A DNA stretch of 64,000 nt from an uncultured delta proteobacterium (GCA_963724765.1 CAVRVY010000004.1:1600001-1664000), one strand, 5' to 3'; positions 1-29,019 are shown, counted from the stretch's first letter. Program-made: numbers and translations. Notes: generated by a model from the sequence alone, not told the origin.

Positions 1-2
1 GC

Positions 3-1166
3 CTCCTTCATGATGTCTTCCATCTGATTTGCCACTTGCTCGGGGCTGCCCACAATTTGCGGCATTGCTACGCTAGCGCCGTAGATCTGACCGATTTGTC
101 GCAGGGTGAGTCTGACGTCGTGCATCTTTACTAGAGCATCAAACAGTCCTTGTGCACCCTGGATATCACCAATCTCGTCGACAGGTTTGTCCGGATCGAG
201 TTTCGACAAGTCATAGTTTGAGTGTCCCGACAGCAAGGCTAACCCGGCCTCAAACGGTACTCGGTCATTAATCGTCTTCTGTTGCGCAAGCGCTTCCTGC
301 TCACTTTGTCCGACGATTACCTGAATGCCGGCTAGTATCTTTAAATCTTTGGGACTTCTGCCAAACTTAAGGGTCCGCTCTTTAAGATCTTTCCCTACCT
401 GCTTCATTGCGCGAGATGTGTATTGAATTATAAATGCTGCTTCCGCATGTTTGGCGCAAAAGTCTCGACCCGCACCCGAGGCCCCGGCTTGAAACAGTAC
501 TGGGCGTACCTGTGGAGAAGGTATAACGCAAGAAAAGCCCGGGCACGAGAACCACTTGCCTTCATGATTGATCGGATGCACTTTTCTGGGATCGGCGAAG
601 ATTTGCTTCTCCTTATCCATCATCACCGCGTCGGCCTCCCAGCTATTCCACAACTTATTACACACCTCCATATACTCATCGGCGCGTTCGTATCGCACAT
701 CATGCGGGACCACCTCTTTTAGCCCCATGTTGCGAGCTTCGCCGACATGAAGGGAAGTGACAATGTTCCACCCGATACGTCCTTTAGTAAGGTGGTCTAA
801 CGTTGATAACTTTCTCACAGCCATATAAGGCGGATAATAAGTCACAGACAACGTGGATGCAAAACCCAAATGATCGGTGACTGCGGCCATCATAGGTATC
901 AAGAGCAGCGGGTCATGTACGGGGAATTGAATGGCGTGCCGCACCGCCACATCAGTATTTCCTCTGAAGTTTCCATATGCCGCCAACTGGTCCGCAAAGA
1001 ACACGGCATCGAATCGTCCGCGTTCCAACGTCTGAGCAATGTGCTGCCACACTTCAGGCTGAGCGTAATGGTAACCCACGTTATTTCTGGGGTGCGTCCA
1101 GGAGCCGATCGTATGATTCATGGGACTATTAATAACGAAACCCATAAGATGCATTAGCTTTTTCAT
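3..1166 (-). CDS. NtaA/DmoA/DszA-family FMN-dependent monooxygenase (3' end runs off the window)
   Basis: Absent from the ORF track because it has no stop in the window. Manual translation gives MKKLMHLMGFVINSPMNHTIGSWTHP...AQTLERGRFDAVFFAD...HDPLLLIPMMAAVTDHLG...TLDHLTKGRIGWNIVTS. RBS GAGG precedes the ATG at 1166. Confidence 0.9.
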   Translation of the reverse strand, partial: MKKLMHLMGFVINSPMNHTIGSWTHPRNNVGYHYAQPEVWQHIAQTLERGRFDAVFFADQLAAYGNFRGNTDVAVRHAIQFPVHDPLLLIPMMAAVTDHLGFASTLSVTYYPPYMAVRKLSTLDHLTKGRIGWNIVTSLHVGEARNMGLKEVVPHDVRYERADEYMEVCNKLWNSWEADAVMMDKEKQIFADPRKVHPINHEGKWFSCPGFSCVIPSPQVRPVLFQAGASGAGRDFCAKHAEAAFIIQYTSRAMKQVGKDLKERTLKFGRSPKDLKILAGIQVIVGQSEQEALAQQKTINDRVPFEAGLALLSGHSNYDLSKLDPDKPVDEIGDIQGAQGLFDALVKMHDVRLTLRQIGQIYGASVAMPQIVGSPEQVANQMEDIMKE

Positions 1167-1230
1167 ACGATCCTCTTTGACTAGGTATCGCCTAACAGTT
1201 TATTCAGACATCCGCTGCCTAATCTCCAAC

Positions 1231-2346
1231 TCAAGCGAGGTGATAGATACGAGCAGCATTGTGGCTTAGCACTCTGCGTTTCTGGTCCTCTGTGAGATCA
1301 TCGCGTGTCGCAACGATCTTGACCGAATCAGGTGTTTTTGCATCCCAGTGAGGATAATCGGACGCATACATAACGTGATCGGAACCCAGCCATTCCAGCA
1401 CTGACGGGAGCGTTGTTTCGTCCGGATCGCATGAGAAGATCAAGTTGGGGGACCGGGCCCAATCACTAGGCAAGCGCTTTAGCCGCGGAACGAGACTTGG
1501 CAATTTTTCATAGTGTTCATCCAATCTCTCGAACCAAAACGGAACCCACCCCACGCCGGACTCAAGGATTCCAATCACCAATTTCGGAAATCGGTCGAAC
1601 ACTCCTTCAGTAATGACACTCATCACGGCAATCATTTGCTCGAAAGGAAAAGCCACCATATGGCCATGAAAGAAGTTCATGAAGCGCTCGCGGCCTACGT
1701 AGTTGATTTGTCCCCCAGCATGTGGATGGATAAATATCGGTATGTTTAAGCGTTGAGCTTTTTCAAACACTGGATAGAAATGGGGATCGCCAGGATATAG
1801 GCGGCCTTGAGAATTGCTAGGCAATTCGGCACCCACAAAGCCCAGCCGCTCCACGCACCTTGTCAATTCACGCACCGCTTCTGGAATGTCTCGCGTGGGT
1901 AGCACCGCTACCGGCTTGAGCCGTGCACTATTCGCTGTGGCGTATTCGGCCACCCACGAGTTATAAGCGCGACATAGAGCAGCCTCCAGGCCTACGTCTG
2001 CACTCGGCAATATTCCGGACGATGGCCCCATGGTTACTGTGGCGAAAAGAATGGCGATATCGATTCCCTCTGCGTCCATATCTTTGAGCCGGGCATCGGG
2101 ATCAGAGCCGCCTTTGTATTTATCCGCTCTGGGTGCGCCGACGTAACCGCCCGGATGCCCTGCGCCTGGTCCGGGCGGAGCGGTCCAAAACCAGCCATCA
2201 ATTAACGTTCGCTCTATCCCCCGATTGTCGGTAACAAGACGTGGCGCAATGTCTCGGTAGGGTCCATCCAAAAACCGCGCCCAGGCCTCTATAGGTTCAG
2301 TCACGTGCCCATCGCCATCAATTACGTGATATCCGTATTTTCCCAT
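1231..2346 (-). CDS. Amidohydrolase_2 family metalloenzyme (decarboxylase/hydratase-like)
   Basis: Motifs VIDGDGHVTE, FIHP, ESGVGW and YASDYPHWD. Confidence 0.9.
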   Translation of the reverse strand: MGKYGYHVIDGDGHVTEPIEAWARFLDGPYRDIAPRLVTDNRGIERTLIDGWFWTAPPGPGAGHPGGYVGAPRADKYKGGSDPDARLKDMDAEGIDIAILFATVTMGPSSGILPSADVGLEAALCRAYNSWVAEYATANSARLKPVAVLPTRDIPEAVRELTRCVERLGFVGAELPSNSQGRLYPGDPHFYPVFEKAQRLNIPIFIHPHAGGQINYVGRERFMNFFHGHMVAFPFEQMIAVMSVITEGVFDRFPKLVIGILESGVGWVPFWFERLDEHYEKLPSLVPRLKRLPSDWARSPNLIFSCDPDETTLPSVLEWLGSDHVMYASDYPHWDAKTPDSVKIVATRDDLTEDQKRRVLSHNAARIYHLA

Positions 2347-2368
2347 AACGATGTCCCACTTTTGATTT

Positions 2369-3298
2369 CTAATCGTTCACTGCCGACTTGTGGCTGTGCT
2401 CTTTCGGTTCGAGTCGCGCTTCGACTTTTGCCGCCTCCTCGAAAAACGTCAGAATTGCAGTAAAATCCTGACCGCCGCGTCCGCGAGCGCGCATAACGTT
2501 GTATAGATTGCGTACGAGCGAGCTCAAGAACATAGGAACGCCGAGTTCTTCACCTGTAGCGAGTGCGAGACCAACATCTTTGCACATTAAATCCACTGTG
2601 AATCCTGGCGTCAGATCGCCCGCAAACGCCTTCTGAGGAAAAAAATGTTCCAGCAAATAACTATTCGAGGAACATCTTTTCATCACATCTAGGAGAGTTC
2701 CAAGGTTGGCGCCTGCCTTGACTCCCATAAGAGTGGCCTCCGCGATCCCGCCGGCAATCACGGCCACCATTGCGTTATTCACGAGCTTAAAGACCTGACC
2801 CATTCCAAGCTGCCCGCAATAAAATACGTCGGTACCCATTGCGTGCAGCGTATCTTTGTGACGGTCGAACACCGCCCGTGGACCGCCGACCATAATGGCA
2901 AGTGTGCCGCTGATCGCAGCACTCTGGCCGCGACTGACAGGAGCATCTAGCAAAGCCACGCCCTTCGCGCTGCATTCACTTGCTATCGCGCCATAGCTGT
3001 GCGGTCCTACAGTGCTCATGTCAATAAATGCACTGCCCTTTTTCAACGTGGCCAAGGCACCGTCGGATCCGAGAGCCGCCTCTACGAGCTCCTTGCCGGT
3101 CGGTAGCATTGTGATTACAGTTACAGCCTCTGAGGCAGCATCCGCTGGGCTGTGTGCTCTTCGTGCTCCCAACGCCACACACTCATGAATTCTCTCCGAC
3201 CGAATGTCATACACTGCCAGCCGACAACCCGACCTTATAAGATTAATCGCCATAGGCTGTCCCATCGCGCCCAGGCCTATAAACCCAATTGTGTCCAT
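2369..3298 (-). CDS. NAD(P)-dependent beta-hydroxyacid dehydrogenase (3-hydroxyisobutyrate DH / YihU-like)
   Basis: Rossmann motif GFIGLGAMG, substrate motif DAPVSRG, catalytic KLVNN, and FTVDLMCKD. Confidence 0.9.
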   Translation of the reverse strand: MDTIGFIGLGAMGQPMAINLIRSGCRLAVYDIRSERIHECVALGARRAHSPADAASEAVTVITMLPTGKELVEAALGSDGALATLKKGSAFIDMSTVGPHSYGAIASECSAKGVALLDAPVSRGQSAAISGTLAIMVGGPRAVFDRHKDTLHAMGTDVFYCGQLGMGQVFKLVNNAMVAVIAGGIAEATLMGVKAGANLGTLLDVMKRCSSNSYLLEHFFPQKAFAGDLTPGFTVDLMCKDVGLALATGEELGVPMFLSSLVRNLYNVMRARGRGGQDFTAILTFFEEAAKVEARLEPKEHSHKSAVND

Positions 3299-3367
3299 AT
3301 GTTTACATCGCCCTTAATGCACTTCTTCGTGAGTCACTGTTACCGGGATAGCCACACATTAGGCAAA

Positions 3368-3525: not shown

Positions 3526-3942
3526 TCACTGGAATCCTTCTGTCTGTGGTATTTTGTCTTCGATTTCATACCACGGCACTTTGGACGTGACGAAGGCGTG
3601 CCGATAGACATCTTTCGGGTGACCCGGATGAGCTCCATTGTCGATAGTGCCCGTTGCTACGGCTATAAGTTCAGGGTGCTCGTCTAGATCGATCGTAACG
3701 GGACAGCCGCAGCTCTTGCAAAAGTGTCGATGCACCTTGGCAGAAGTACTATAAGTGCTAAGACCCTCCTTCTTCTCAAGCGTAAAGGCCGAGCGCGGAA
3801 AGATCGATAGCGTAACGAAAATCGCGCCATGGATCTTTCTACAGATCGAGCAGTGACAATGATGGGTATCGACCGCGGGGGCTGTAATAGCATATCGGAC
3901 GTTGCCACAGTGGCAGCCACCAGTCAGTCTAAAATCTGTCAT
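3526..3942 (-). CDS. GFA-family (glutathione-dependent formaldehyde-activating) Zn protein
   Basis: Motifs GGCHCGNVRY, CHCSICRK and RHFCKSCG. RBS AGGAGG. Confidence 0.9.
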   Translation of the reverse strand: MTDFRLTGGCHCGNVRYAITAPAVDTHHCHCSICRKIHGAIFVTLSIFPRSAFTLEKKEGLSTYSTSAKVHRHFCKSCGCPVTIDLDEHPELIAVATGTIDNGAHPGHPKDVYRHAFVTSKVPWYEIEDKIPQTEGFQ

Positions 3943-4102: not shown

Positions 4103-5536
4103 TTACTCACAACTCCGTTCAAGCTCTTCAAAACGTTGGCGCACGAAGGTGTTGCGTTCCTCACCAACAAGGTCGTCTGCCTGGGTGGTGATGTCGATGA
4201 GTTTGCGACCGAGTTCACGTATAAGGCGCTTGTCCTCTTCGGCCGAGGCGCGGCGCCGGATTTGAAGGATTGTATTCTGGGTGTAGGTGTATGAGGGAAG
4301 CTGGTTCCGTGGTCTGCGATGCAGTGCCTCCGAACTAGCCGACTGGTTTGTGCCACGGATAGCTTCTCTCAACATCTTTCGGAACATATAGACGCCGATG
4401 TCGTTCGTTGTCGGATGCTCGAGAGCGTGAATCGCGATGGGCCGTTGACTCACGATAGCTTCCCAGTCGCCCGGAAGTCGCTGCTGTTGGTCATAAGGAC
4501 GGTTGCCAACTTGACCCTCGAGGAAATCGATGTCGTCCCAGCCGACTCGTTCTTCGCGTCCCTTTTGCAGCGGATCGACGGTCCGGCCAAACATTCGCCA
4601 GCCATAAACGATCGTGTTCGTGTCATCGACTGGCACATACCAGCGGGACATGTGCACGCGATGGAAGAGTCGTCGTTCGCGTCCGTTCTCAAACGTATAG
4701 GCATGGTGAGTGAGGTTCGGTAGGGCACATTCGTTGATCCGCCACCAGACGAGCTGATCGTTCATTCGCCGTCCGGCGACAAAAGCCATCGCGGTCCCTT
4801 CTCGCACTCCCACGTATTCGATCAGCGGCATTGTTCCGAACGAAGGTAGCGTTAGTGGAGTTGGATCAATTCCCGGCGGAAGCGCGCCGTCATATAGAGT
4901 AGCCGGCTGATGGAGAGTCGCAGTGTGCATCTGGTCAGCGATATTCTCCAGTATTTGCAGCCAATTGCATGGAAAGACATTTGAGAATGGGACCAGGCGC
5001 GTATCTTCGTACTTCTCAAATGCATCCGATTCTGGAAATGGAGGGACACTTTCTGACGGTCCCATGTACGCGAACACCAGCCCGTCGCGCTCGAACGCCG
5101 GATAAGCGCCCTGCGCGACGCTGCGTCTCAGCCGCTCGCCCCGGTCGGGCTCGATCGGCACGTCGAGCAGCGTGCCGTCAGTGTCGTAATGGAAGCCATG
5201 GTAGCAGCAGCGGATGCCACACTCTTGAATCACGCCGAATTCGAGCGAAGCGCCGCGATGGCAGCAATGGCGCGCGAGCACCCCGATTCGGCCGGTTCGG
5301 TCGCGGAAGGCGATTAGGTCCTCGCCCATGATGCGGATTTTGTGCGGAACGTTTTTGAGTTGGATAGACATGCACACTGGCTGCCAAAAGCGCCGAAAAT
5401 ATTCTCCCACTGAGGTGCCGGGCCCTACGTGCGTGATCTCTTCATCTTCCTTCGGCACGTCGCGCTTGTCATAGCCCCCGAAAGGTTTAGCTCCAGAAGT
5501 AACCTTCGGCTCGGGGCGCTGTATGCTCGTTGTCAA
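4103..5536 (-). CDS. Rieske non-heme iron oxygenase alpha subunit (phthalate dioxygenase/VanA/TsaM-like group)
   Basis: Rieske motif CCHRGASL...CCYHG and mononuclear Fe site ENIADQMH...LH. Start reassigned to TTG at 5536, which follows GGAGGAGG. Confidence 0.9.
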   Translation of the reverse strand: MTTSIQRPEPKVTSGAKPFGGYDKRDVPKEDEEITHVGPGTSVGEYFRRFWQPVCMSIQLKNVPHKIRIMGEDLIAFRDRTGRIGVLARHCCHRGASLEFGVIQECGIRCCYHGFHYDTDGTLLDVPIEPDRGERLRRSVAQGAYPAFERDGLVFAYMGPSESVPPFPESDAFEKYEDTRLVPFSNVFPCNWLQILENIADQMHTATLHQPATLYDGALPPGIDPTPLTLPSFGTMPLIEYVGVREGTAMAFVAGRRMNDQLVWWRINECALPNLTHHAYTFENGRERRLFHRVHMSRWYVPVDDTNTIVYGWRMFGRTVDPLQKGREERVGWDDIDFLEGQVGNRPYDQQQRLPGDWEAIVSQRPIAIHALEHPTTNDIGVYMFRKMLREAIRGTNQSASSEALHRRPRNQLPSYTYTQNTILQIRRRASAEEDKRLIRELGRKLIDITTQADDLVGEERNTFVRQRFEELERSCE

Positions 5537-5596: not shown

Positions 5597-5640
5597 GGTA
5601 TATGACAACATAATTGCGAAGTCAACAATTTTGATTGCAA
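5597..5640 (-). promoter_or_regulatory. Sigma70-like promoter plus shared operator motif for the Rieske gene
   Basis: Minus strand TTGACT-17nt-TATACC. 5612-5637 is the exact reverse complement of 16702-16727. Confidence 0.75.
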
Positions 5641-5813
5641 GATACGAGAATATAATTTTATATAATTCCTGCAGGAAACGAGGTGAAGAAAGCGAGCCGA
5701 TGCGTTGTGGACAGTTTGCTGTCTAAAATGCGGGGGCCTTGACCACCGGTTCGACGTCAGTTCATCTGGAGTCAGGAACGGACGGCACGAGGCGGATGGG
5801 AGGTAAACGTGAG

Positions 5814-6734
5814 ATGCCAGCGCGACAAAAGCGAAGACGTAAAACGCGAAACCAGCAGGTTGAGACTCGGCGATCTGGACCCTTAAGCCGCGCGTTCTCG
5901 ATCATGGACGCCATGGTCGACGCAACCCGGCCTCTATCGTCGCTGGAAGTCGCGCAGCGGTGCGGCTTCGATCCCAGCACCACTCACCGGCTCCTGCAGA
6001 GTCTGGCGGTGGAAGGCTATCTGCTTCGTGATGACGGCACGAAACGCTATATAGCAAGCCCGAAGCTTCTATTCCCGCTTCCGCTCTATCATCCTTGGAA
6101 CGTGGTGCGCCGTGAAGCGAGCCCGACCTTATTAACGTTGCGCGAAGAGTTCGGCTTCACCACGGGATTGGTAGTCTTCTGTCTTAGGGAACGCGTTCTG
6201 CTCGAACTCGCCTTGGGCCGCGATCCGTTGAGCCCCGACTACCACACCTGGCTGTCCAGCCCCATCCATGCGTCTGGGTCCGGCAAGGTGTTGCTTATGG
6301 CGTCCGCGCCTGAGGAACGACCTCGGCTTCTTGGACCGGAACCATATCGTAAGTTCACTGAAAACACCGTCGTTAGCACCGATGCGCTCAATCGCGAACT
6401 CGCAGAGAGCGCGGCGCGCGGTTACGTCCTCGCATGCGACGACTACATCGAGGGGTTCCGAGTTGTTGCCGCACCTATACAGCCGGTTGCTAAGCCTGTT
6501 GTCGGCTGCCTGTTCTGCTCTGGCCGAAGCGCTACACTTTCGGATCAAGTAATTCCCAGTCTCGGACCTGCTCTCAAGAAGGCCGCGGGTTTTTTCTCGA
6601 TTGGTTCGCCCGCTCTGCAGGGGCTTGCCGACCTTGTCAGCGCCATGTCGCTCGGCCTCGTCTCGACGGCCATCGGTCGAGGTGGCGGTCGGGACGAAAC
6701 CACGGCGAGCCTCGAGTCTGATAAGTCGCAGTAG
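5814..6734 (+). CDS. IclR-family transcriptional regulator
   Basis: N-terminal HTH (LSSLEVAQRCGFDPSTTHRLLQSL) and effector-domain motifs HASGSGKVLL and RGY...VAAPI. Start uncertain (5796 or 5814). Confidence 0.9.
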   Translation: MPARQKRRRKTRNQQVETRRSGPLSRAFSIMDAMVDATRPLSSLEVAQRCGFDPSTTHRLLQSLAVEGYLLRDDGTKRYIASPKLLFPLPLYHPWNVVRREASPTLLTLREEFGFTTGLVVFCLRERVLLELALGRDPLSPDYHTWLSSPIHASGSGKVLLMASAPEERPRLLGPEPYRKFTENTVVSTDALNRELAESAARGYVLACDDYIEGFRVVAAPIQPVAKPVVGCLFCSGRSATLSDQVIPSLGPALKKAAGFFSIGSPALQGLADLVSAMSLGLVSTAIGRGGGRDETTASLESDKSQ

Positions 6735-7380: not shown

Positions 7381-8328
7381 TTAGTTCAAATCACAACAGT
7401 CGCTCTGCCCCGACTCGCGCCAACGCAATAAACAATTGAGAATCGCGGCAGCCGCAAGGCGGGCTTCAGGAGGGTCCGTACGAGAGGTAACGACAAGCGG
7501 AACTTTAGCGCCCAATACAAGACCTGCAGCGGTAGCTCCCATGAGATGCACCATCAGTTTCGACAATGCGTTGCCAGTTTCGATATTGTGGACGACAAGG
7601 ACATCCGCGTTTCCTGCCACAGGCCCGTCGATTTCCTTCAACGTTGCCGCGCTTTTAGAAATGGCGTTGTCTAAGGCTAGTGGTCCCTGTATATCGCACG
7701 CGATCCTCATCTGCTGAATGCGCTGCATCACTTTCACGGCGTCCACCGAGGACGGCATACGCCGGCTGAGTTCTTCGGTCGCAGAAAGAAGTGCCACGCG
7801 CGGACGCGGGTTGCCGATGCAGTGAGCAAGCTCGACAGCATTTTGAACGATGTCGAGCTTTGTGTCCAGGTCCGGCGCGATATTCACCCCACTGTCCGTG
7901 ACGACGAGCTCGCGATCCACACCTGGTAGTGCCATGTAGTAAACATGCGACAATCTCCGCTTTGTCCGCAACCCCTTTCGGCGGTCGAGCACAGCACCGA
8001 TTAGCACACTAGTGTGAAGGTGCCCCTTCATTAACGCCTTCACTTCGCCGTTGCGGGCGAGCGCCACAGATATTTCGGCTGCCGCTGCATCATCTGTAGC
8101 TGCTACAATTCGGTAATTGGTAATATCCCAATGCATAGAACTCGCGATTCGCCGAACGACATCTGGATCGCCGACGAAGACAGGTTCCATGAAGCGGTGA
8201 TTCGTCGCAAGCCGCGCACCTTCGAGCACCACCTCCGCATTAGCTGCTACCACTGCAGTCAGTAATGGCGTGTCTGCGTTACTTGCCGCCAAAAGATGTG
8301 GTAAGAATCCGCGCCTCCGCTTTACCAT
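7381..8328 (-). CDS. pta: Phosphate acetyl/butyryltransferase (PTB-type Pta)
   Basis: Motifs LMKGHLHTS, TDSGVNIAP, QGPLALDNAIS, NIETGNALSK and VVTSRTD. Lies directly downstream of xsc. Start approximate. Confidence 0.85.
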   Translation of the reverse strand: MVKRRRGFLPHLLAASNADTPLLTAVVAANAEVVLEGARLATNHRFMEPVFVGDPDVVRRIASSMHWDITNYRIVAATDDAAAAEISVALARNGEVKALMKGHLHTSVLIGAVLDRRKGLRTKRRLSHVYYMALPGVDRELVVTDSGVNIAPDLDTKLDIVQNAVELAHCIGNPRPRVALLSATEELSRRMPSSVDAVKVMQRIQQMRIACDIQGPLALDNAISKSAATLKEIDGPVAGNADVLVVHNIETGNALSKLMVHLMGATAAGLVLGAKVPLVVTSRTDPPEARLAAAAILNCLLRWRESGQSDCCDLN

Positions 8329-8443
8329 CGTTACTGAACTCGCCTGACGCTCCAATGACGCGAAGCCACAGGTCTTATGACCGCAGAATTGACCGCTCCC
8401 AAGAGCAGCAAATCGGGTTGGTCGAGGCCCCGAGACGCTCTCT

Positions 8444-10153: not shown

Positions 10154-10203
10154 ATGACCCTCTCGCTCCTTACGATTTCAAGCTAAGGCGCGAACGAAGG
10201 ATA

Positions 10204-11390: not shown

Positions 11391-11442
11391 AGCTCCGCCC
11401 GGCGTTGCTAAAGGCGTCAAAGGTGTGCATAATTCACAACAA

Positions 11443-11470
11443 TAATATTGAAATTAACAATTTTTGTTGC
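11443..11470 (-). promoter_or_regulatory. Copy of the shared operator motif upstream of the reductase
   Basis: taatattgaaattaacaatttttgttgc matches 5611-5638 at 21 of 28 positions. Confidence 0.6.
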
Positions 11471-14906: not shown

Positions 14907-14915
14907 CGTCGGATA

Positions 14916-16698: not shown

Positions 16699-16742
16699 CT
16701 ACAATCAAAATTGTTGACTTCGCAATTCAACTATCGTAAAGA
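16699..16742 (+). promoter_or_regulatory. Promoter/operator motif upstream of amidohydrolase copy 1
   Basis: caatcaaaattgTTGACTtcgcaatt (16702-16727) is identical to the reverse complement of 5612-5637. TTGACT-17nt-TAAAGA. Confidence 0.72.
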
Positions 16743-19482: not shown

Positions 19483-19945
19483 AGCTCTCAGCCGATATTG
19501 CTCTTCATGGCAGCATTGGACAGAGGCGTATAAAGTGTTCCCAGCCGATGATGACCTCAGTCATGGGCGCGTTCGCTCTCGACCAGCCGGTTTGGTGATA
19601 ACCTTAGGAAATGGCGCACCAAATCGGCGGGGCTTAAGTCATCGCAAGGTGAATCTACGCCGTGTCCTTCACCGAATCGCTGAGAAAACCCCCTCGACCA
19701 AATTGCCAGTCGAGGCAGTAATGGATAAACCTTGCAGGATCATCGCGACGATCCATCATTTTTTCAGAGTCAGTTGGTACCTGTGCACCAAACATAGACG
19801 ACCCGCTTGTCTTGGGCGCGACAATTCTCGCTGCGGGCTGCAAGCGGCGACGCTCGGTCGGCTTGCACCATTGCCAGGGGTGATATGGATTCATGATTGC
19901 CCCGCCGCGCTGTGGAGCAAAACTTGGAAGAGCAGCTAGGTCATT

Positions 19946-20788
19946 GTGGAGTTTATTCAATTGTTGAGATTGATATGCGCGCTCGTGGCACTCGCGATCA
20001 GCGCCGGCTTCGTTGGATCGCTTTCCGGCCAGGGCGGAGGAGTCTTCATTGTGCCGGCACTGGTCATCTTCATGCACGTGCCGATCGAGATCGCTATCGG
20101 CGCGAGCCTCATGGCCGTGGTGGCGACGAGTGCCGGCGCGAGCGTCGCATTCGTGCGCGATGGATGGACCAATCTCAGGGTGGCAATTGTATTGGAATGC
20201 GCTACCGTCACCGGAGCAGTCGCCGGGGCTTATCTGGTCGGATTCGCGCCGCCGGGTTTGCTCGAAGCCCTCTTCGCTATGGTGATGCTCCAATCGGCGT
20301 ACTTTTCACTCCACAAGAAGGACTCGACACCGCTCTCCGGCAGCGACCCGCTTTGCGTGCGGCTGGGCCTGGATGGTCGCTTCCCGGGCGATGACGGTGT
20401 CCCGGTGCATTATGGCGTGCGCAACCTGCGCGGCGGCGCGACCCTAATGGCGATCGCGGGGCTGATGTCGGGACTGCTGGGGATCGGTTCGGGGGCGCTT
20501 AAGGTGGTCGCCATGGACCATGTGATGCTCCTGCCGCTCAAAGTGTCGAGTGCTACGAGTAACTTCATGATAGGAGTCACGGCCGGAGCCGGTGCGCTGG
20601 TGTTTCTAGCTCGCGGCGCCGTGGCGCCGATGATTGCGGCTCCGGTAGCCGTAGGAGTAACCGCGGGAGCGATCGCGGGGAGCAAGCTCCTGCCCCGCGC
20701 GAACGTGAAATGGCTGCGAATGGGATTTGTGGTGATCCTCGTGATGATCGCAATCGAAATGGGTTGGAGAGCTGTCTTCGGAGTCTAA
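19946..20788 (+). CDS. TauE/SafE (TSUP) sulfite exporter family protein
   Basis: Motifs GSLSGQGGGVFIVP, SGLLGIGSG and KVSSATSNFMIGVT. Multiple transmembrane helices. Confidence 0.88.
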   Translation: MEFIQLLRLICALVALAISAGFVGSLSGQGGGVFIVPALVIFMHVPIEIAIGASLMAVVATSAGASVAFVRDGWTNLRVAIVLECATVTGAVAGAYLVGFAPPGLLEALFAMVMLQSAYFSLHKKDSTPLSGSDPLCVRLGLDGRFPGDDGVPVHYGVRNLRGGATLMAIAGLMSGLLGIGSGALKVVAMDHVMLLPLKVSSATSNFMIGVTAGAGALVFLARGAVAPMIAAPVAVGVTAGAIAGSKLLPRANVKWLRMGFVVILVMIAIEMGWRAVFGV

Positions 20789-21271
20789 TGGCGTGTCGGA
20801 AATAAAGTTGGCGATGCGGTGCGGTGCTGCAGTTGATCGACGAGCGGTATTGGTCAAGGTAAAGGGTTTTGCGCATAGGTTACGTTCGCCAGGCAATTGA
20901 TTATGGCGCGCTCCAGTTGGGCGACGCTGGCGAAGCCGCCGCCGCGAATCCCCTGTTAGACTGATGACCCCAAACCACAGCGCTCGACGGGTTGAGCCAC
21001 GAGGTGATGGAAGGGATAAAGGACAGATGGAAGCGAGGATGAGCGGCGAGACGCGTCTGCGCCTTGGATACCTTGTGAGCGTCGTAATTGTCGCTGATCA
21101 GACGACGTTCACGGCTGAATTAGGCGGGCAAGCGAATGGAGAACGTCGATGAGCCTCCTAGTGTCGGTAGCGCCGGTGGAAGGTTCATTCACCTTCCCGT
21201 CGGCCGGCATGCACATACACCCCACGCTGCATAGACGAACAAGCCCTACAGATATTTCCGGAACGTGACGA

Positions 21272-21679
21272 ATGGAAGAGCGCGCGCTACTGCTGATTGA
21301 CGAAGAAGAACGAATACTGCGCGTGTGGACGCCTGTCCTCCTGCGCACGATACTCATGGTCGCTGTAACCCTGCTGCTGCTAGCACTAGTACAGACGTTC
21401 CGGCGATCTTATGGTAACTATGCTGAGTCCCTCAGGTGGATCCAACAGACTGCGCCCGAGGCGCAGAAATCGCTCCCCTATCTCGCGGCGGGGGCATGTC
21501 ATGGCAGCCCGACCGCGATCGCCACGCTCGGGTTGATGGTTCTGACACTGGTGCCGCTTGTGCGTGTAGGCTTTTGCCTGCTTCTGTTTCTTAGGCAGCG
21601 GAATCGAGAATTCGTCATTTTTACTTCATATGTGCTGGCCGGACTAGCCATTGGCGTGATATTGGGAAAGATCGGCTAG
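21272..21679 (+). CDS. DUF1634-type membrane protein (usual TauE partner)
   Basis: LGLMVLTLVPLVRV motif, about three transmembrane segments, downstream of TauE. Confidence 0.75.
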   Translation: MEERALLLIDEEERILRVWTPVLLRTILMVAVTLLLLALVQTFRRSYGNYAESLRWIQQTAPEAQKSLPYLAAGACHGSPTAIATLGLMVLTLVPLVRVGFCLLLFLRQRNREFVIFTSYVLAGLAIGVILGKIG

Positions 21680-22418
21680 AGCCTAAGTAGGTTTTTTGCC
21701 CGTCAGGATCCTCACTGTGGGCGGACAGAGGACAGAGGCGCTCAACTTGCGCTGCGGTATCGCAATGACCAGAATGGCTGCATCAGATGCCAAGCAAACC
21801 ATTCGAGGATTTTCGCACCTGGGTCAAGAACATCGGGGAAGTCGACTTTCGCAACGCCAGCCGTCATTTCGGCGTGATTCGCTGCAATCGCCGCGACGCC
21901 GTGCTTCGCGTCGAGATCTGCCCAACAGCGCGCTTATCATCCGTGGATCCGGAACGCGTCTGATAGGAAGACGCCGGCGTCTATAGAACCTAACGTTCCC
22001 GGTTCAACCTGATCCGATAAACGGCGCCCGTTGCTATCATCGCAACGTTCGCATTGAGAAGCCCGCGCAGGATTACTCCGGCGACATAGTGGCCGATACA
22101 CGCAAAACGCACTCATCCTTCATTCGCTGGCTTGAAATGGCGCCAGGCACCGGTCCTGATAGGCTGCGCCATCCTCTGTGATCGCGCGTTTACACCGACG
22201 CCGCCCTTTACGTCCGGCGCTGGCGCGTCGTATTTCGAACCACCATTGCCGACAATGTCTGCCGCGGCATCGGCCCGGCCAGGCCGAGAACTCACGCTTG
22301 GTCTTGAAGCGGAGGCCTTTTGTCGATGGGTAACCGACCTCGAGTTGTACAGTTTTGGCAGCCGACAAGGGCAAATGAGAAAACTCATGCTCCGCCGCCG
22401 CGGCGGCCCCAATCTCCA

Positions 22419-23680
22419 TCAGACGATGTCTTCAAGTTCTTTCCCTTTCATCTCTGGGACGAGAAGTAGCACGATCGGTATACAGACGAAAGTGACGGCG
22501 GCGACGATCGCTACCGCCTGTCCGACCGATCCCAACAGCGCGGAGAGCCCCCCGACGATCGCGGGCGCCAGCGCCATGCCCGCGCGGCCGAGCAGATTGT
22601 TGACGACCGCGTTCCCAACACCTCGCACGTGAGTAGGAAACATCTCGCTGGTGATCGTGGCCGCGATCGGCCATAGGGCGTGCATCCCCAGAACCACAAT
22701 ATAGGCGATAGCGATCATCGGCCTAGATTCGGCGAGGAAGCAGACAATGGCGCTGACACCGCCCACGGCAAAAAACAGACAAGCGGTGAAACGGCGGCCT
22801 GCATAGTCCATCGCCGGCCCCGCCGTCGCATAGCCGATCACTGCAAGGATATAGCCTACGGTTAGTGTATGTCCGACCTGCGCGGGTGACCATCCTCGTT
22901 CATTTGTCGCGTAGTAGGCAAAGAAGAAGAGGCAACTCGCGCTCCAAGCGTTAACGGCAAACCAGATACAGGCGCCGGCGATAGCCCGCCGACGATATGC
23001 CGGCTCCAACACGACGCCTAAAGCCTTTAGGCCTGAAAGCAATGAGGAGACCGGCCGCGTGCGATTGCCGTGTTCGCGTCCCCAGCGCTGTGTTTCCTGA
23101 AGCCGGGACCAATAGAAAAGAAGGACCGGGATGAGAATGCCACCGACTAGGTAGAGCGCGCGCCAGCTGAGGCGGGTATCAACCACATGCGGAAAGATCG
23201 CTGACCTGACCACCCCCCCCCCAGCAGGCTGGCCGCGAACATCACGGTTATGGCCGCGCCTCGAAAGCGTGCTGGCATTTCCTCGGTCAGGATGATTGCA
23301 CCAACGCCGATCTCACTAACCATGAAGAGCCGGGCGACGAACTGACAGGCGACGAAGGCGTACAGGCCCACAGAGAGAGCACTCAAGACCGTAAAAATCG
23401 TATAGCCAGTGACGGCGCTAAGAAAGACTGGACGCCTTCCGCACCGGTCCGAAAGCTGTACCGGAATGAACGCCACGATCGTCCCGACATTTATCAGCCC
23501 CACGGCGAATCCAAGGGTCTTCGAATCCGCTCCGAAATCAGTTCCGAGATACGGCAGAGCCAGATTAATAATCAGAAGGTCATAGCCCTCGAACAGCGAC
23601 GCCACGCAGATGAAGAGGAGCAAATATTTCAGATAACGAACCGACAGCTCGACCATCTCTCCTTTGCCGGCTATCGACAC
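22419..23680 (-). pseudogene. MFS transporter (aromatic-acid/sugar type), split at a G10 tract (23213-23222)
   Basis: N-half (LFEGYD...SDRCGRRP...EEMPARFRG) and C-half (MDYAGRR...SEMFPTHVRG...PEMKGKELE) lie in different frames that join at the homopolymer. Confidence 0.8.
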
Positions 23681-23703
23681 GGATTAACTCGCAAATCGCG
23701 TTC

Positions 23704-24150
23704 CTACTGGTTGACGTTGGGCGCGAAGCGTTGCTCCGCGGAGATCGGCTCTGGAACCTTGGGCAGTTCTTTCGCCGGTTCGGGCGCATGACCGGCGACC
23801 CGAAACGGCACGTGATCGCCGGAATACATCACATGGTGATGCATCGAAGCAATGGTTTGCGGGCTCAGAACCAACGCTGGCGAGATAAACATGATAAACA
23901 TGGTGTGGTCATGCTGTTTGGTCCACTTTTCAGCTGATTCCAGACCATAGTGATGAGGAATATTAATTCCTTCTACATGGTAATGCGATGGAATAATCAC
24001 TTCGGTATCTATCTTATCCATCACAACGTCCGCCCACTTAGGACTGAGTATATAACTGTCGTCGCTTACAGCTAAGATCGCCACGCCGATCTTGCCGATA
24101 ATCTTCCAACGTTGGCGGCGTACACGCTCGACCACGTCTTCAGCGCACCG
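23704..24150 (-). pseudogene. C-terminal fragment of an MBL-fold hydrolase-like protein
   Basis: IGKIGVAILAVSDD...VIIPSHYH resembles an MBL C-terminus. No N-terminal HxHxDH. Contains a 9-bp tandem duplication (MFIMFI). Confidence 0.45.
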
Positions 24151-24499
24151 AGAGCCGTGGCTCCGCCGAGGAGTGATTTGGTCTGCTGAAGAAAATGCTT
24201 GCACTTGATCCGCCGCTAACGTACAAGGAATACGTGGTGGACTGGCGCCCTCTATTCGCGACTGCGGTAGCCTGCGCGTTAGTCGCCTATATGGCGCAGG
24301 ATCGCTCAGATCAGCTCACTCAACATGGCCGAGGTGGTCGCCCGCCTCTGCGCCAGTCCACTATTAAAGCCCTCCGCAGCGGGCCTCGCGCGTCACGAAA
24401 GGTATCCCAAGCCCATTCTTATCGCCGCTCGTGTAACCTCCGGTCATCTTGACGTCGTGCTTCTCACCAAAACGCGAGGCGAGCAGGACGCGGTTGCTG

Positions 24500-25984
24500 T
24501 TACTGATTCGTCTTGGATTTCATGAGTTTATTAACCGCGTGTTCGACTACAGTGCCGTCGAAGAAGTTTGGGTTCATGTCGGTCCACAGGTGCGTCGGAT
24601 TAACGAACACAAACTCGCGAAAATCTTCTTCGCTAATTAGGCCATGCTCGACCATTTCGTGTGCTTCTTCGGTTACCTCGGTAATATCGGGGACGTCCCA
24701 GTGGCCGATATCCGAGCTGAACACTGGCTTTAGCTTCGAATGCAGTGGGTTGCGTTTGGCGTCGAATGCCCAGGCGTTGGTTGGGTCGTCAGCCTCGCAA
24801 CCGAAGTAGAATGGCTTCACGAACAACTCGCGGAAGTCCTCCAAGCTCTCGATCTTCGCCGGTGCCCACTCGTCGCGCAGCGTCGAGGAATCTTCGAGGT
24901 TCCGGTAGAGTATCGAATTCTCCATCAAGCTTGCGATTATGGTGTCTTTGCCCAGCTTGTTGCCGCCGTACTTCCTGAACAGATCGACATAGAGTGCGCG
25001 GTCGAGATTCGCTGGGTTATACGTCTCGATCCGCTTGCCGTTGCGCTTTTCCCAATGCCCGATCAGATCAGCGTATAGACTGCATCCCCAGGACACTCCG
25101 CCTTCGAGGAATGCGAACTTTAGCGTCGGGAACCGCCGCGTGACACCGCCCATGAAGAGCGCCTTTGCCAGTCCCTCTCCAGCCTGCGCGAAGTGCCCGA
25201 TGTGGTCGTACATGTAGTTCGTCACCGTGGCCCGCGTGCCGACACCCATCGTCCCTGAATGGTGGGTTGGACACACTTTGAGTTCGACGCACTTCGCCCA
25301 CACAGGGTCGTAGTCATAGAGGCTGTCGATGACGAAATTATCGATCCAGGTCGCGTAGCGCGCCGCTTCGGGGAACTTTTCCGCCACGATCGGGATCGGA
25401 CGCCGCGCATGGCTCGCCATCATGATCGACTTCATCCCGAGCCCTTTGATCGCGTACTCCAGTTCGGCAATCGCCTCCTGCGGAGTATTCATCGGGATAA
25501 CGGCAGACGGCGTCAGCCGGTCGGAGTATTCCTTGAAAATATCGTAGTTGTACCTGTTTAGCGCTCGGCAGCAGACTTGCCTGAGTTCATCATTCGGAAT
25601 ATTCGGGAAGGCCAACCCGAGGGTGGTGTAGAGTACGGCAAAGTCGATACCGGTTTCCGGCAAGCGCTCGTATAGCAACTTTGGCAGGCTCGCGGTCGCT
25701 CGATCCAACGTATTCTTCGCCGGAAGTCCCCACCATGGCCGCCGCGTAACCCGACCATACATTCGGTCTTCCGGACTCAGGTGGTACCAGCCATCGCCCC
25801 GAACATCCACAAAGGCCCCGAAAATATCGGTGCGTCTGTAGCGATCAACCATTCCGGAGCCGCCAACATCCTTGAGGTACTCCAGGAACGCCGATTCACA
25901 TTCAACCGTATGTCCATCGGAGTCGATGACAGGGTGCGTCAGCTTCTCCCGTACCTTCTGCGACTTCGTTTTGGCTTTCTCCAT
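24500..25984 (-). CDS. Amidohydrolase_2 family protein, copy 2
   Basis: Near-identical to 17015..18517. Differs at YRRTDIF, RRPWWGLPAK, MYDHIG and the C-terminus. Confidence 0.88.
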   Translation of the reverse strand: MEKAKTKSQKVREKLTHPVIDSDGHTVECESAFLEYLKDVGGSGMVDRYRRTDIFGAFVDVRGDGWYHLSPEDRMYGRVTRRPWWGLPAKNTLDRATASLPKLLYERLPETGIDFAVLYTTLGLAFPNIPNDELRQVCCRALNRYNYDIFKEYSDRLTPSAVIPMNTPQEAIAELEYAIKGLGMKSIMMASHARRPIPIVAEKFPEAARYATWIDNFVIDSLYDYDPVWAKCVELKVCPTHHSGTMGVGTRATVTNYMYDHIGHFAQAGEGLAKALFMGGVTRRFPTLKFAFLEGGVSWGCSLYADLIGHWEKRNGKRIETYNPANLDRALYVDLFRKYGGNKLGKDTIIASLMENSILYRNLEDSSTLRDEWAPAKIESLEDFRELFVKPFYFGCEADDPTNAWAFDAKRNPLHSKLKPVFSSDIGHWDVPDITEVTEEAHEMVEHGLISEEDFREFVFVNPTHLWTDMNPNFFDGTVVEHAVNKLMKSKTNQ

Positions 25985-26075
25985 GACAATTACCCGTCTC
26001 TTCTGCTTGCTGGTTCTCTGTTGCTCGAACTGTTTTAATTGCGGCTCTATTTCGCCTAATTGAAATGCGCCTCAT
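24521..26075 (-). repeat. Right arm of the inverted duplication
   Basis: Reverse complement aligns to 16926-18478, including about 85 nt upstream of the ATG. Confidence 0.95.
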
Positions 26076-27223
26076 GCGCGCAGTCCCATATTTTTGAGCC
26101 GCGGGATAACCTTCGCTCGGAAAAACTCAATTCCGCGAAATGGATCGAAGAAAGTAATCAAGACACCTTCATAACCTAGTTCATAGAGTGCCTGAATAGT
26201 CTCCGCCTGCGTATCTGGATCCCCGATGCTCCAATAGCCGCTCAAGCCAAGAGCAATGTGGCGGAATTGTTCGTGCTGAAAGGACGTCTCTGGCTGCTGC
26301 GTCGCCCGGCCGAGGAAGCGCGATGCAGCCTCTTGATCTATTTGACTGTCGATCCAACTAAAGCGTGCCTGAGCCTCGGCATCTGTATCCCCTACAATGT
26401 TATAGGTGAAAGTCAGCAGACGCAGACGACGGCCATAGTGAGCTGCTCTCTCTCTAGCCTTACGGGCGATCTCTGCCAACGCCTGCAAGTCCGGGCCACT
26501 ACAGAACAGCCACTCGCAGTGTTTTGCCGCGAAATCTATGCCCGCCTCCGAATGCCCCGCGTTCACAAGGACTGGTCGTGGACGCCGCACGGGCTTTACT
26601 TTTACCAGGCCTCCTAGTGACCGATAGTACTTTCCAAAAAAATCCACTGGCTTCTCACTAGCCCAAAGCCATTTCATAAGAGTCACAAATTCGTCCGCCA
26701 TCGCATAGCGCTCATCATGGGGTACCCATTGTAGAGAGCCAGTGAACATAGCGTATTCTTCGGCGAACCAACCAGTGACTACATTCAGTCCCCAACGACC
26801 ATTCGAAAGATAATCTATCTGAGCTCCAAAGCGGGCAAAGTGCAAAGGATGAAAAGCATAGGTAACATGAGCGGTGGAAAACAATAAAATATTTGTGGTG
26901 AGCTGAGAGAGAGCAGCAGCGCTAGTAATGACGTCCAATTGCTCGTCATTAAATCCGATTTCACCTCCGTGGCCGACATATCGGCCGAATGGCACTTCGA
27001 AATCGAAGCCTGCTCTTTCAGCATTCTGTACGAGCTGTGAAGCCTCAGGCCATTGCCAGTAGTCCCTGTATCGCTTCGGTTCGGTGAGCACGGCCTTAGA
27101 GATCGTGGCTCCGCATGAGACATTCCATGCGAAAAGACCAAGAAGTATTTTGTTGGAGTTCCTGATTTCCGGCTGTCCGCCCGGATCGAATGGTCCCTGG
27201 AAAATATCTACACTAACAGACAT
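26072..27223 (-). CDS. LLM-class (luciferase-like) flavin monooxygenase, SsuD/RutA/SfnG-like
   Basis: Motifs AERAGFDF, LSNGRWGLNVVTGW, HDERYAMADEF and NAGHSEAGIDFAAKH. RBS AAGGAG before ATG 27223. Confidence 0.9.
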   Translation of the reverse strand: MSVSVDIFQGPFDPGGQPEIRNSNKILLGLFAWNVSCGATISKAVLTEPKRYRDYWQWPEASQLVQNAERAGFDFEVPFGRYVGHGGEIGFNDEQLDVITSAAALSQLTTNILLFSTAHVTYAFHPLHFARFGAQIDYLSNGRWGLNVVTGWFAEEYAMFTGSLQWVPHDERYAMADEFVTLMKWLWASEKPVDFFGKYYRSLGGLVKVKPVRRPRPVLVNAGHSEAGIDFAAKHCEWLFCSGPDLQALAEIARKARERAAHYGRRLRLLTFTYNIVGDTDAEAQARFSWIDSQIDQEAASRFLGRATQQPETSFQHEQFRHIALGLSGYWSIGDPDTQAETIQALYELGYEGVLITFFDPFRGIEFFRAKVIPRLKNMGLRA

Positions 27224-27593
27224 TTTTCTCTCCTTCCGCAGAATGCGACAAAGTCGCTTGGAGCTGACAGCGCCGATGTCCGTCGAACAGCGCCGCATCC
27301 ACGCGAGATGGGCGATCGTTCTCCTGAGTCATCCCCTTAGGCACACTGGGCCAATGCTGGGCCTTGCCGGGCCGCAGTGTTACGGGCACGATCGCAATCG
27401 TCTCCGGCATTTGCCTACGGCTCACTCATCGGTTTCACGAGGCATGTCAGGTCAATTGCGCTCTCTACCTATGAATGACGGAAATAGGAGAGCAGGCCAT
27501 CAGGACTCTGCAGTTCCACTCTGTCACGCCTAGGCGACACATTACCTAAATTAAACGTTGCTGAGCGTCTGTCTTCGCTGGCGGCTTTGGTTT

Positions 27594-28166
27594 CTAGCGG
27601 CGGCGCGCCGCTAGCGGTTCAGGTCCGAGTCCAGCCCCAGCTATCGTCCGAAGCCGCAGGACTGTCGTAACCAAAGCGGTGAGATCGTCGCGAGCCTGTC
27701 CCGAGACTTCACCGCTCTCGAAGTCAGTTGAAGACAGATACACGCTGGTTGGTGCAACAAGTGCCCCGAACCAGGCAAGAACGTTACGCAGATGCCAATC
27801 CACTCCGAGATAATGGTGATACGTAGCGCCCATGGCGATTATACCGCAGGGTTTATAGCGTAATGCTTCGACAGGAACGTTGTCGAGCAGGTTTTTGAGT
27901 ACTCCGGAAAATGAACCGCGGTACACGGGGCTCGCAAAAATGACGGCTTCAGCGTGCGCGATTCTGCCCACGACTGTGGCTGTGTCATCGCCGAATTGTT
28001 CGGGCGCTCGACCGTCAGCAAAGGAAATTCTAAAGTCGCCCAAGTTCAAAGCGGAAGCCTCGAGGTCTGGTTCCAAGTTCCGCGCCGCGCTGATCGCAAA
28101 CTGTAGAGCCTTTAGCGATCGTCCCGGCGGAGTCACGCTTCCGAGTATCCCGATGATGTTTCTCAT
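27594..28166 (-). CDS. NADPH-dependent FMN reductase (SsuE/MsuE-like)
   Basis: Motifs ILGSVTPPGRS and FASPVYRGSFSGVLKNLLD. Start taken at ATG 28166. Confidence 0.88.
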   Translation of the reverse strand: MRNIIGILGSVTPPGRSLKALQFAISAARNLEPDLEASALNLGDFRISFADGRAPEQFGDDTATVVGRIAHAEAVIFASPVYRGSFSGVLKNLLDNVPVEALRYKPCGIIAMGATYHHYLGVDWHLRNVLAWFGALVAPTSVYLSSTDFESGEVSGQARDDLTALVTTVLRLRTIAGAGLGPEPLAARRR

Positions 28167-28220
28167 GTAAAAAGCCCTCTTTAGACCGAGCGTCAAATTT
28201 TTTCCTGGCCTGGACACTCA

Positions 28221-28340
28221 TCATCTACGTAAGCCCATCGGTCGCAAGATCGGCAGAACCTCTTCACGCGTTACCTTCAGACCTTCTCCAGCCGGCTCGC
28301 AAACGGCGCATAGACGAGCGCCCATCCGGGCTAGGGTTTG
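28221..28340 (-). pseudogene. C-terminal remnant of a second LLM monooxygenase
   Basis: Manual translation QTLARMG...EGLKVTREEVLPILRPMGLRR* aligns to the end of 26072..27223 (RGIEFFRAKVIPRLKNMGLRA*). Confidence 0.55.
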
Positions 28341-28345
28341 AGCGC

Positions 28346-28783
28346 TCATACATCACTGTCCTTATCTACCCTTTTGCTAACAAGGGCCAAACGATCCCGT
28401 GGTATCGCTCGACCTTTTCCAGGCACTACAGGCCATCTACGAAGCTGCGCTCGATTCGCTGGTCTAGTTCCGGCTTCAATCGCGAAAGGCCGTATTGCCC
28501 ACGATAGATTGCGCTGTATCTTTGCGGTCTTCCTAACAATCAAAAAGCTAGTACCGTTCGGCGGATTCTGACCAATCGGCCAGATGAGAACCCCCCCGTT
28601 CGGATAGCCACCACAAATCTCCGGCGTACCATCGATTGAGTAGCCGGTACCGAGGACGGCCTTGATACCGTCGCTACGAACGATCAGCAGGTCCGCCGGG
28701 TCCGTGAAGTGAAAAGGGATCGGCCATTCCCGCGTCAAACCATCGGATGTATAGCTCAGGCATACCTGTGTTTCGTTCACCAT
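28346..28783 (-). CDS. Small protein resembling the N-terminal anchor domain of T7-like phage tail fibres; possibly frameshifted near 28470
   Basis: LSYTSDGLTREWPIPFHFTDPADLLIV...LGTGYSIDG...GGVLIW...PPNGTSFLIVRKT matches the family pattern as I recall it. RBS AGGAG before ATG 28783. Confidence 0.55.
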   Translation of the reverse strand: MVNETQVCLSYTSDGLTREWPIPFHFTDPADLLIVRSDGIKAVLGTGYSIDGTPEICGGYPNGGVLIWPIGQNPPNGTSFLIVRKTAKIQRNLSWAIRPFAIEAGTRPANRAQLRRWPVVPGKGRAIPRDRLALVSKRVDKDSDV

Positions 28784-28976
28784 AGAGACACTCCTGGGCT
28801 TGACTCCTATGCTCACGCCGGGACGCGCCTGCTGAAGCTCCGTGATTTACGCGGTCGGGATCGTGGAACATCCTGCGTTGGCTCAGCGTGCGTGGCTCGG
28901 CGATGGTCGGCCTCTCGCTGGTCACAAAGCTCTGTTGACTCCGATAAAGCTTCAAGCTCTCACATTTATAATATCA

Positions 28977-29019
28977 TTTTAAGACAAAATTATCACGAAA
29001 TCAAGAATTATGATTGCAA
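28977..29019 (-). promoter_or_regulatory. Sigma70 promoter with the shared operator motif, facing the tail-fibre-like ORF / ssuE / LLM unit
   Basis: Minus strand TTGATT-17nt-TAAAAT. 28990-29019 matches 5611-5640 at 24 of 30 positions. Confidence 0.75.

Follow-up and report, generated by a model that had tools for sequence, protein, structure and literature searches.

The first 29 kb of the DNA stretch G000:C4:1600001-1664000 (64 kb, the window) from the 5.4 Mb genome of an uncultured deltaproteobacterium carry a gene island whose conserved core comprises a Rieske non-heme iron oxygenase with its reductase, a regulator of the IclR type and a divergent sulfoacetaldehyde acetyltransferase (Xsc), embedded in a larger, non-conserved patchwork. 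The oxygenase probably represents a mobile, uncharacterised family, with over 1000 MdpJ-like Rieske members, that starts a so far undescribed aerobic degradation of sulfonates by way of a dedicated Xsc subgroup, either by beta-hydroxylation of alkanesulfonates or by attack on derivatives of coenzyme M (CoM) or on ethanedisulfonate; in this organism the route would be complemented by thioether-oxidising flavin enzymes upstream and by a new NAD-dependent isethionate dehydrogenase of the beta-hydroxyacid dehydrogenase (beta-HAD) type. The Xsc of the window and its divergent subgroup are termed Xsc', set apart from canonical Xsc. A literature search, mainly in freely readable papers, yielded no publication tying a Rieske oxygenase to Xsc; in the accessible part of PMC13436972 the Rieske mention concerns cytochrome b6f.

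Linkage of the Rieske oxygenase and Xsc'

Xsc as query against GTDB genomes gave 28 loci, of which five with acetolactate-synthase-like proteins (27-29 % identity) were dropped, leaving 23 Xsc' loci. The Rieske oxygenase as query against metagenomes gave 25 loci, 16 shorter than 7 kb and nine longer. Co-occurrence counts refer to these 48 related loci, many of them short, with flanks of at most 10 kb. A Rieske orthologue was present in 10 of the 23 Xsc' loci, and in an eleventh the reductase gene lies at the contig end; xsc was present in four of the 25 Rieske loci. Among the nine Rieske loci longer than 7 kb, four had xsc, four came from a marine sister clade whose gene neighbours differ, and one (L046) had no xsc within 10 kb. 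Merging of near-identical loci left about ten lineages, comprising Alpha- and Betaproteobacteria, Myxococcota and the lineage of the window, and the gene order of the Rieske-Xsc' loci varies among these hosts. Because of this number of lineages, the shuffled gene order and a shared sequence motif, a chance linkage is unlikely. The synteny check proposed in the original prediction thus showed a conserved linkage of xsc with the Rieske gene. Seventeen assemblies are, by indirect matching, apparently common to the 120 best Rieske and the 120 best Xsc matches, and in Acidiphilium sp. AL the two accessions are only two apart. The nearest homologues among the best 120 matches each (Rieske 81 %, Xsc 88 %) were labelled Candidatus Binataceae. 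One organism, represented by L036 and L037, has all genes but one of the window's left part with 69-88 % identity, and lacks the GFA gene and the molybdoenzyme block described below. IclR orthologues (46-77 %) stand beside the Rieske gene in L012, L023-L025, L036-L040 and L057.

The island is rare in its lineage: a search for xsc found none in 36 genomes of the same family, and among 24 others of the class one gave a 45 % match; the Rieske orthologue was found in none of 164 same-family genomes searched. Vertical inheritance of the module was rejected on these counts. In five genomes with a Rieske-less Xsc', no Rieske gene was found elsewhere in a search run without a positive control.

The original prediction had treated the genes across all 29 kb as parts of a single pathway. 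This could not be upheld: the haloalkane dehalogenase (HLD), the GFA protein, the window's TauE/DUF1634 pair, the MFS transporter, the flavin monooxygenase LLM2 and the FMN reductase occurred in none of the 48 loci and were discarded as pathway members. Haloethanesulfonates as substrates and hydrolytic cleavage, both considered in the original prediction, were dropped for the same reason. A propionyl-CoA carboxylase beside the module in L024 and L025 was also discarded, as it is restricted to one lineage.

A shared promoter motif for several units, as predicted, was recovered. An identical 26-mer lies upstream of the Rieske gene (5612-5637, minus strand) and of the amidohydrolase gene AH2 (16702-16727, plus strand), and such a two-match 26-mer was never reproduced in 100 shuffles. 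Weaker copies precede the reductase-xsc-pta unit (11444-11469, minus strand, seven mismatches) and occur at 28991-29016 (minus strand, six mismatches); by the latter, LLM2 and the FMN reductase possibly stand under the same regulator as the Rieske unit. Elsewhere in the genome three sites have at most seven mismatches. In L036 the site upstream of the Rieske gene is kept with four mismatches.

Core enzymes and the alcohol dehydrogenase

The Rieske gene (4103-5536, minus strand) likely starts at TTG 5536, giving 477 amino acids; ATG 5611 is disfavoured because a ribosome binding site precedes 5536 and the 26-bp motif overlaps ATG 5611. The [2Fe-2S] ligands, the bridging Asp and the 2-His-1-Asp iron site are invariant in 90 of 90 homologues. 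With its PDR/VanB-type FMN-[2Fe-2S] reductase (10356-11420, minus strand) the enzyme has the features of the PDO/MdpJ subfamily. The best plasmid match was a Rieske/reductase pair of Methylibium petroleiphilum PM1 (47.7 % and 51.4 % identity; oxygenase E 4e-128, compared to about 1e-12 to 1e-9 for the demethylases NdmA and DdmC). From gene order, this pair fits Mpe_B0555/B0554 (MdpJ/MdpK), and a beta-HAD nearby, as in the window, fits B0561; in the accessible part of PMC4517660 (Table 7) these are the tert-butyl alcohol hydroxylase, its reductase and the dehydrogenase for the product. The same source gives 81 % identity between the tert-butyl alcohol hydroxylases of PM1 and T29. Compared with that value 47.7 % is low, and the neighbours differ, MdpJ adjoining 2-hydroxyisobutyrate genes and the window's enzyme xsc, so that the enzyme does not qualify as an MdpJ orthologue. 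The tree places MdpJ outside the group linked to Xsc; its branch is long and its position therefore uncertain. Three of the top 120 Rieske homologues bear the JGI label 'tert-butyl alcohol monooxygenase'.

The structure model (pLDDT 93.9) had as best fold match phthalate 4,5-dioxygenase (7v25; TM about 0.6, identity about 27 %). In a profile alignment to the PDO pocket residues taken from the accessible part of PMC8649396, the Arg244 and Arg231 positions are kept, but Arg207, Ser179 and the aromatic stacking positions Phe278 and Phe280 are lost. Since Arg244 alone is kept of the tested pocket (Arg207, Arg244, Ser179, Phe278, Phe280), the pocket does not fit a phthalate 4,5-dioxygenase. The family keeps Arg256, Arg266, Arg298 and Arg314, all common to MdpJ as is Gly312, whereas Gln202, His278, His295 and Tyr300 of the window's enzyme are His, Asn, Ala and Gln in MdpJ; His278 is present in 90 of 90 rows (92 aligned, two distant rows left out). 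Such a pocket would suit a small aliphatic anion. The marine sister clade (L048-L053, L055, L056; 55-56 % identity) has the same pocket residues. Around its Rieske genes are an acyl-CoA synthetase of the ADP-forming type, parts of biotin carboxylase, and thiolase/OB-fold genes. Synthetases of a similar kind also stand on the flanks of Xsc' in L018 and L021, a hint that longer sulfonates may have a route as well.

Xsc' (8444-10153, minus strand) has the N, M and C domains of thiamine diphosphate enzymes and is the only xsc of the genome. It scored above the cut-off of PRK07525 (674.7 > 620) and below that of TIGR03457 (642.1 < 676.4), as did all five other subgroup members scored against TIGR03457. 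With only 38-42 % identity to annotated plasmid Xsc proteins it forms its own clade in a quick tree; a separation of the 32-row Xsc group from acetolactate-synthase-like proteins is uncertain, with an SH-aLRT of 86 and a long-branch warning. Xsc' retains 127 of the 228 columns invariant in five annotated plasmid Xsc, and 33 residues common to Xsc' and Xsc are missing from four acetolactate-synthase-like proteins. Rieske-linked and Rieske-less Xsc' interleave in the tree, with only two weak Rieske-specific columns. A nested member, L016, is accompanied by a TauA above its cut-off, an omega-aminotransferase and an alanine dehydrogenase. Because L016 sits in a taurine cluster, ordinary sulfoacetaldehyde cleavage is suggested for Xsc', and the wider context with an adjacent pta, the TauA of L016 and loci of TRAP transporter, GMC oxidoreductase and IclR argues for a true Xsc. 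We found no solved Xsc structure; the chemistry of the enzyme and the SauT/SauS route follow the accessible part of PMC10413351. The adjacent phosphate acetyl/butyryltransferase Pta (7381-8490, minus strand) is of the PRK08190/PRK11890 type, with orthologues in three of 23 Xsc and three of 25 Rieske loci. A longer acyl group, which its Ptb-like character might suggest, was rejected, since the same type stands beside a canonical xsc in G064.

Side observations around xsc concern three other groups of genes. In two loci (L020:15-2156; L021:7281-9917) the gene immediately upstream of Xsc' is sarcosine/dimethylglycine-dehydrogenase-like and encodes a candidate N-methyltaurine dehydrogenase. A thiG gene was found near xsc at L012:7841-8758 and, together with thiS, at L007:103-1096, suggesting that cofactor supply travels with Xsc. 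A haloarchaeal plasmid (L072:8757-15903) has a C2-sulfonate cluster of archaeal origin, in which xsc and pta are joined by a SauS-like dehydrogenase (54 %), an Fe-ADH and a CoA transferase.

Among the open reading frames (ORFs) of 1-32 kb no member of the tpa, tauXY, iseJ or sauST families was found, in agreement with the original prediction. The check was extended to the whole genome with reference sequences from annotated plasmid clusters. TauXY, IseJ and SauS gave only distant matches (41-57, 25-30 and 29 bits), compared to 116-549 bits among TauX/TauY pairs and 376-450 bits among cluster GMC proteins; in this, too, Xsc' differs from canonical Xsc of TauXY and SauS clusters, as the search of its genome recovered no orthologue of either. 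By its gene layout, the SauT-like match is probably a succinyl-CoA synthetase. Class III aminotransferases with about 33 % identity to Tpa-like proteins are present, and one of them may be a Tpa. SsuD above its cut-off was found neither in the window's genome nor in any of five module genomes. The binding protein of the module's ABC transport system resembles NMT1/TauA-type anion binders.

All 14 loci holding both Rieske and xsc contain an alcohol dehydrogenase gene. In 12 it is a GMC oxidoreductase, for which six tested proteins showed 38-42 % identity to the GMC of a Caballeronia xsc-pta-IclR cluster; the latter is by gene context a putative IseJ, the flavin isethionate dehydrogenase that acts with Xsc according to the accessible part of PMC6453916. 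The other two loci, L036 and L037 of one organism, resemble the window in having a beta-HAD directly after the Rieske gene. The window's beta-HAD (2369-3298, minus strand; 74 % in L036) carries an Arg123 that aligns with Arg123 of YihU and is replaced by Gly in the carboxylate-specific relatives GarR, HIBADH and Hgd; it is retained in 31 of 34 homologues, two of which come apparently, by indirect matching, from the same assemblies as Rieske homologues. The YihU pocket, as described in the accessible part of PMC8006165, consists of Asn174, Ser178 and the backbone of Arg123. We propose that beta-HAD may serve as an NAD-linked isethionate dehydrogenase in place of the GMC. The module resembles the IseJ-Xsc-Pta pathway in that most homologous loci have the GMC dehydrogenase, IclR, a transporter and xsc, but it adds the upstream Rieske oxygenase, has a separate Xsc subgroup and, in the window, replaces the GMC by the beta-HAD.

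Proposed route and competing explanations

We tentatively favour an oxygen-dependent entry into Xsc, from ethanesulfonate or a close analogue via isethionate and sulfoacetaldehyde to acetyl phosphate and sulfite. First, the Rieske enzyme together with its reductase would hydroxylate the methyl group beside the sulfur-bearing carbon of a small alkanesulfonate, in the simplest case ethanesulfonate to isethionate, comparable to MdpJ, which hydroxylates beside the C-OH carbon of tert-butanol. An alcohol dehydrogenase, the IseJ-like GMC in most hosts and the beta-HAD here, would form sulfoacetaldehyde, from which Xsc, by the established activity of its family, would release acetyl phosphate and sulfite; Pta would yield acetyl-CoA. 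Sulfite may be oxidised by a sulfite-oxidase-family protein with EtfBA, possibly also by an inserted Mo-bisPGD enzyme, or in other hosts exported by TauE. The weakest step is the upstream supply, in which the flavin monooxygenase LLM1 and an SfnB/DszC-like flavoprotein probably convert ethyl thioethers, sulfones or sulfinates to the sulfonate. A C-H hydroxylation to an alcohol is proposed because all 14 loci contain an alcohol dehydrogenase and because the Rieske enzyme is MdpJ-like; a charged substrate and sulfite are proposed because of the anion-type ABC system, TauE (in six loci) and the sulfite-oxidase-family gene, which together with etfBA is also present in L039. SsuD/MsuD and TauD hydroxylate the alpha carbon of alkanesulfonates in one step, releasing sulfite. 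The proposed route would share with them the O2-dependent sulfite release, but would attack the beta carbon and conserve acetyl phosphate. The idea of an Xsc fed by a non-canonical, oxygen-dependent enzyme thus gained from the conserved synteny and from the lack of TauXY, IseJ and SauS orthologues among the genome's matches. Good's buffers and xenobiotic metabolites lost their place as lead substrates, since the dehydrogenase in 14 of 14 loci and the MdpJ-like Rieske point elsewhere.

Several points weigh against hydroxylation of ethanesulfonate. The 48 % identity to MdpJ leaves the reaction type unfixed, and the pocket was mapped from a profile alignment without superposed coordinates. The marine sister clade lacks xsc in four of four loci longer than 7 kb and has a different context, and L046 lacks it within 10 kb. 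The GMC is also present in six of the 12 Xsc' loci with neither Rieske nor reductase, and may be an older isethionate module that does not act on the Rieske product. With 243 bits the beta-HAD falls short of the YihU cut-off of 348 bits; its Ser178 is missing, and YihU uses only the backbone of Arg123. A canonical xsc coexists with Xsc' in three of five module genomes, so that Xsc' could act on a different aldehyde. Alpha-hydroxylation would be the simpler route, and ethanesulfonate is not known to be abundant as a natural substrate.

The main rival, possible but rather doubtful, has the Rieske enzyme hydroxylate the heteroatom-bearing carbon of a C2 sulfonate, with collapse directly to sulfoacetaldehyde or isethionate; the substrates would be CoM, methyl-CoM or their oxidised forms, ethane-1,2-disulfonate, N-alkyltaurines or isethionate ethers, and the GMC or beta-HAD would let isethionate enter in parallel or act as a rescue step. 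CoM thioethers and N-substituted taurines, already named in the original prediction, are retained in this form, not favoured over C-H hydroxylation. CoM derivatives fit the thioether-oxidising types nearby (LLM1 above the NtaA/DmoA cut-off, the SfnB/DszC-like protein below its own) and the peat, soil and freshwater sediment from which the sequencing runs with the window's DNA originate, and the Arg-rich pocket would suit a dianion. Such a role leaves an alcohol dehydrogenase in 14 of 14 loci, swapped between families, unexplained. The related enzymes NdmA and DdmC dealkylate, but these demethylases are far more distant than MdpJ; the GFA gene follows the Rieske gene in the window, but was absent from all 48 loci; and for N-methyltaurine the sarcosine/dimethylglycine-dehydrogenase-like gene of L020 and L021 is the likelier route.

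Improbable, in our estimation, is a desaturation of ethanesulfonate to vinylsulfonate, or a Rieske enzyme for an unrelated small aliphatic compound beside an xsc that depends on a distant Tpa encoded at another genome site. Paper titles attribute a desaturase function to MdpJ, but a hydratase conserved in the module was not found. The aminotransferases mentioned above and the marine sister clade without xsc nearby speak for an unrelated role, against which stand the ten or so lineages, the shuffled gene order and the shared motif. We consider it very unlikely that ethyl sulfones or sulfinates are the substrates and that Xsc' has shifted to the elimination of sulfinate from sulfonylacetaldehyde, which flavin enzymes would finish. 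The low identity of Xsc' to annotated Xsc, its 127 of 228 kept columns, its coexistence with canonical xsc and the SfnB-like and SfnG-like genes of the island would fit such a shift. The interleaving of Rieske-linked and Rieske-less Xsc' in the tree, one of them in a taurine cluster, with two weak Rieske-specific columns, speaks against it, and the anion-type ABC system, TauE and the sulfite-oxidase-family gene indicate a charged substrate and sulfite.

Surroundings of the core and significance

All genes named in the original prediction were found at their expected places and match their families; its inventory of the 29 kb had overlooked a molybdoenzyme block and the continuation to the left. 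The block (12066-16449, minus strand) encodes a Mo-bisPGD enzyme with a 4Fe-4S/NrfD partner and has 94.5 % nucleotide identity to C3:1401642-1406007. The gene is present in 15 of 16 same-genus genomes, and the window's block is a second copy of this genus-core block; its GC content at third codon positions is 0.70-0.85, compared to 0.53-0.66 for the core. A misassembly was rejected and the insertion looks real, as single contigs of two other runs bridge the left and right ends; an identity to the C3 copy over 2.4 kb and a frameshift in the FeS/NrfD gene may be polishing errors. Family members with a fused 4Fe-4S/NrfD partner were found at L072:19486-24513, L073:7675-12865 and L075:6093-10844. 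In Halomarina the family lies 8 kb from xsc, in Rhodococcus RHA1 beside DsrE/TusA/rhodanese genes and in Thermomicrobium beside a metal-sensitive regulator. The inserted enzyme is a candidate Soe-like oxidoreductase for sulfite or sulfane sulfur, and a role in sulfite handling is plausible.

To the left the island extends about 6.5 kb beyond the window and encodes there a DUF1329 protein as well as a sulfite-oxidase-family molybdenum protein, a flavoprotein of the SfnB/DszC-like type and EtfBA; the last three all score under their equivalog cut-offs. LLM1 (1-1166, minus strand; 440 amino acids, ending outside the window at C4:1599844) is an NtaA/DmoA-family FMN monooxygenase (TIGR03860, 517 bits > 279.7) and a lineage-level accessory, with orthologues in L036 (86 %) and, over 50 amino acids, directly after the Rieske gene in L038 (72 %). 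The accessory Amidohydrolase_2 gene AH1 (1231-2346, minus strand; PF04909) has 85 % identity in L036/L037. The GFA-family gene (3526-3942, minus strand; PF04828) and the IclR gene (5739-6734, plus strand; PF09339/PF01614) lie on either side of the Rieske gene, the latter divergent from it. AH2 (16940-18517, plus strand), a lineage-level accessory, has 85 % identity in L036, whose copy points away from the reductase gene in divergent orientation. It recurs inverted at 24500-25984 (minus strand), with 97.6 % identity across 1555 nt; the three amidohydrolases of the original prediction exist, two of them being one gene and its inverted copy. Between both copies lies a patchwork (18622-24204) of HLD (above the PRK03592 cut-off), TauE, DUF1634, a remnant of a further Mo-enzyme copy (21799-22217), an MFS gene broken at a G10 run, where the assembly possibly has an indel, and an ORF (23704-24204) without Pfam match. 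LLM2 and the FMN reductase (26072-28217, minus strand) missed the equivalog cut-offs for SfnG (173 < 383) and SsuD (93 < 518), and for SsuE and MsuE (97 < 212 and 70 < 164), respectively. They are SfnG-like and MsuE/SsuE-like below these cut-offs; for the beta-HAD, the label YihU-like agrees with Arg123 and Asn174, but neither with its score nor with position 178, where Ser is replaced by Val.

Several side observations concern the genome around these genes. Decayed fragments of an AH2-HLD pair lie at G000:C4:1591122-1591855 (L003:9122-9855), 9 kb left of the window, which suggests that the island was duplicated and decayed repeatedly. Insertion sequence elements lie to its right at 29.5-31.1 kb, and at 29071-29380 a perfect 31-nt inverted repeat adjoins a recombinase-like remnant that is repeated at three further genome sites. 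The ORF 28346-28816, also without Pfam match, recalls by eye a phage tail-fibre N-terminus. At 31916-40189 and 52415-55899 more genes related to sulfur, namely a rhodanese, an FAD/CCG oxidase pair, a persulfide-dioxygenase-rhodanese fusion, a YeeE/YedE pair and a SorA-like protein were recognised by eye. Among the runs listed for the window's DNA there was no RNA run, and atlas searches returned generic names only.

In the papers cited here Xsc is fed by dehydrogenases, transaminases and CoA ligases. If the proposal is true, the Rieske oxygenase adds an entry by O2-dependent C-H activation and brings more kinds of organosulfur compounds within reach of Xsc. A function would also be assigned to a large protein family whose present labels are 'tert-butyl alcohol monooxygenase' or 'ring-hydroxylating dioxygenase', with consequences for metagenome readings of the potential for fuel-oxygenate and aromatic degradation. 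An oxygenase has long been suspected in the degradation of ethanedisulfonate; the Rieske enzyme is a candidate for it and for the aerobic fate of CoM. With Acidiphilium sp. AL and several Bordetella bronchiseptica strains as cultured carriers the question is directly testable.

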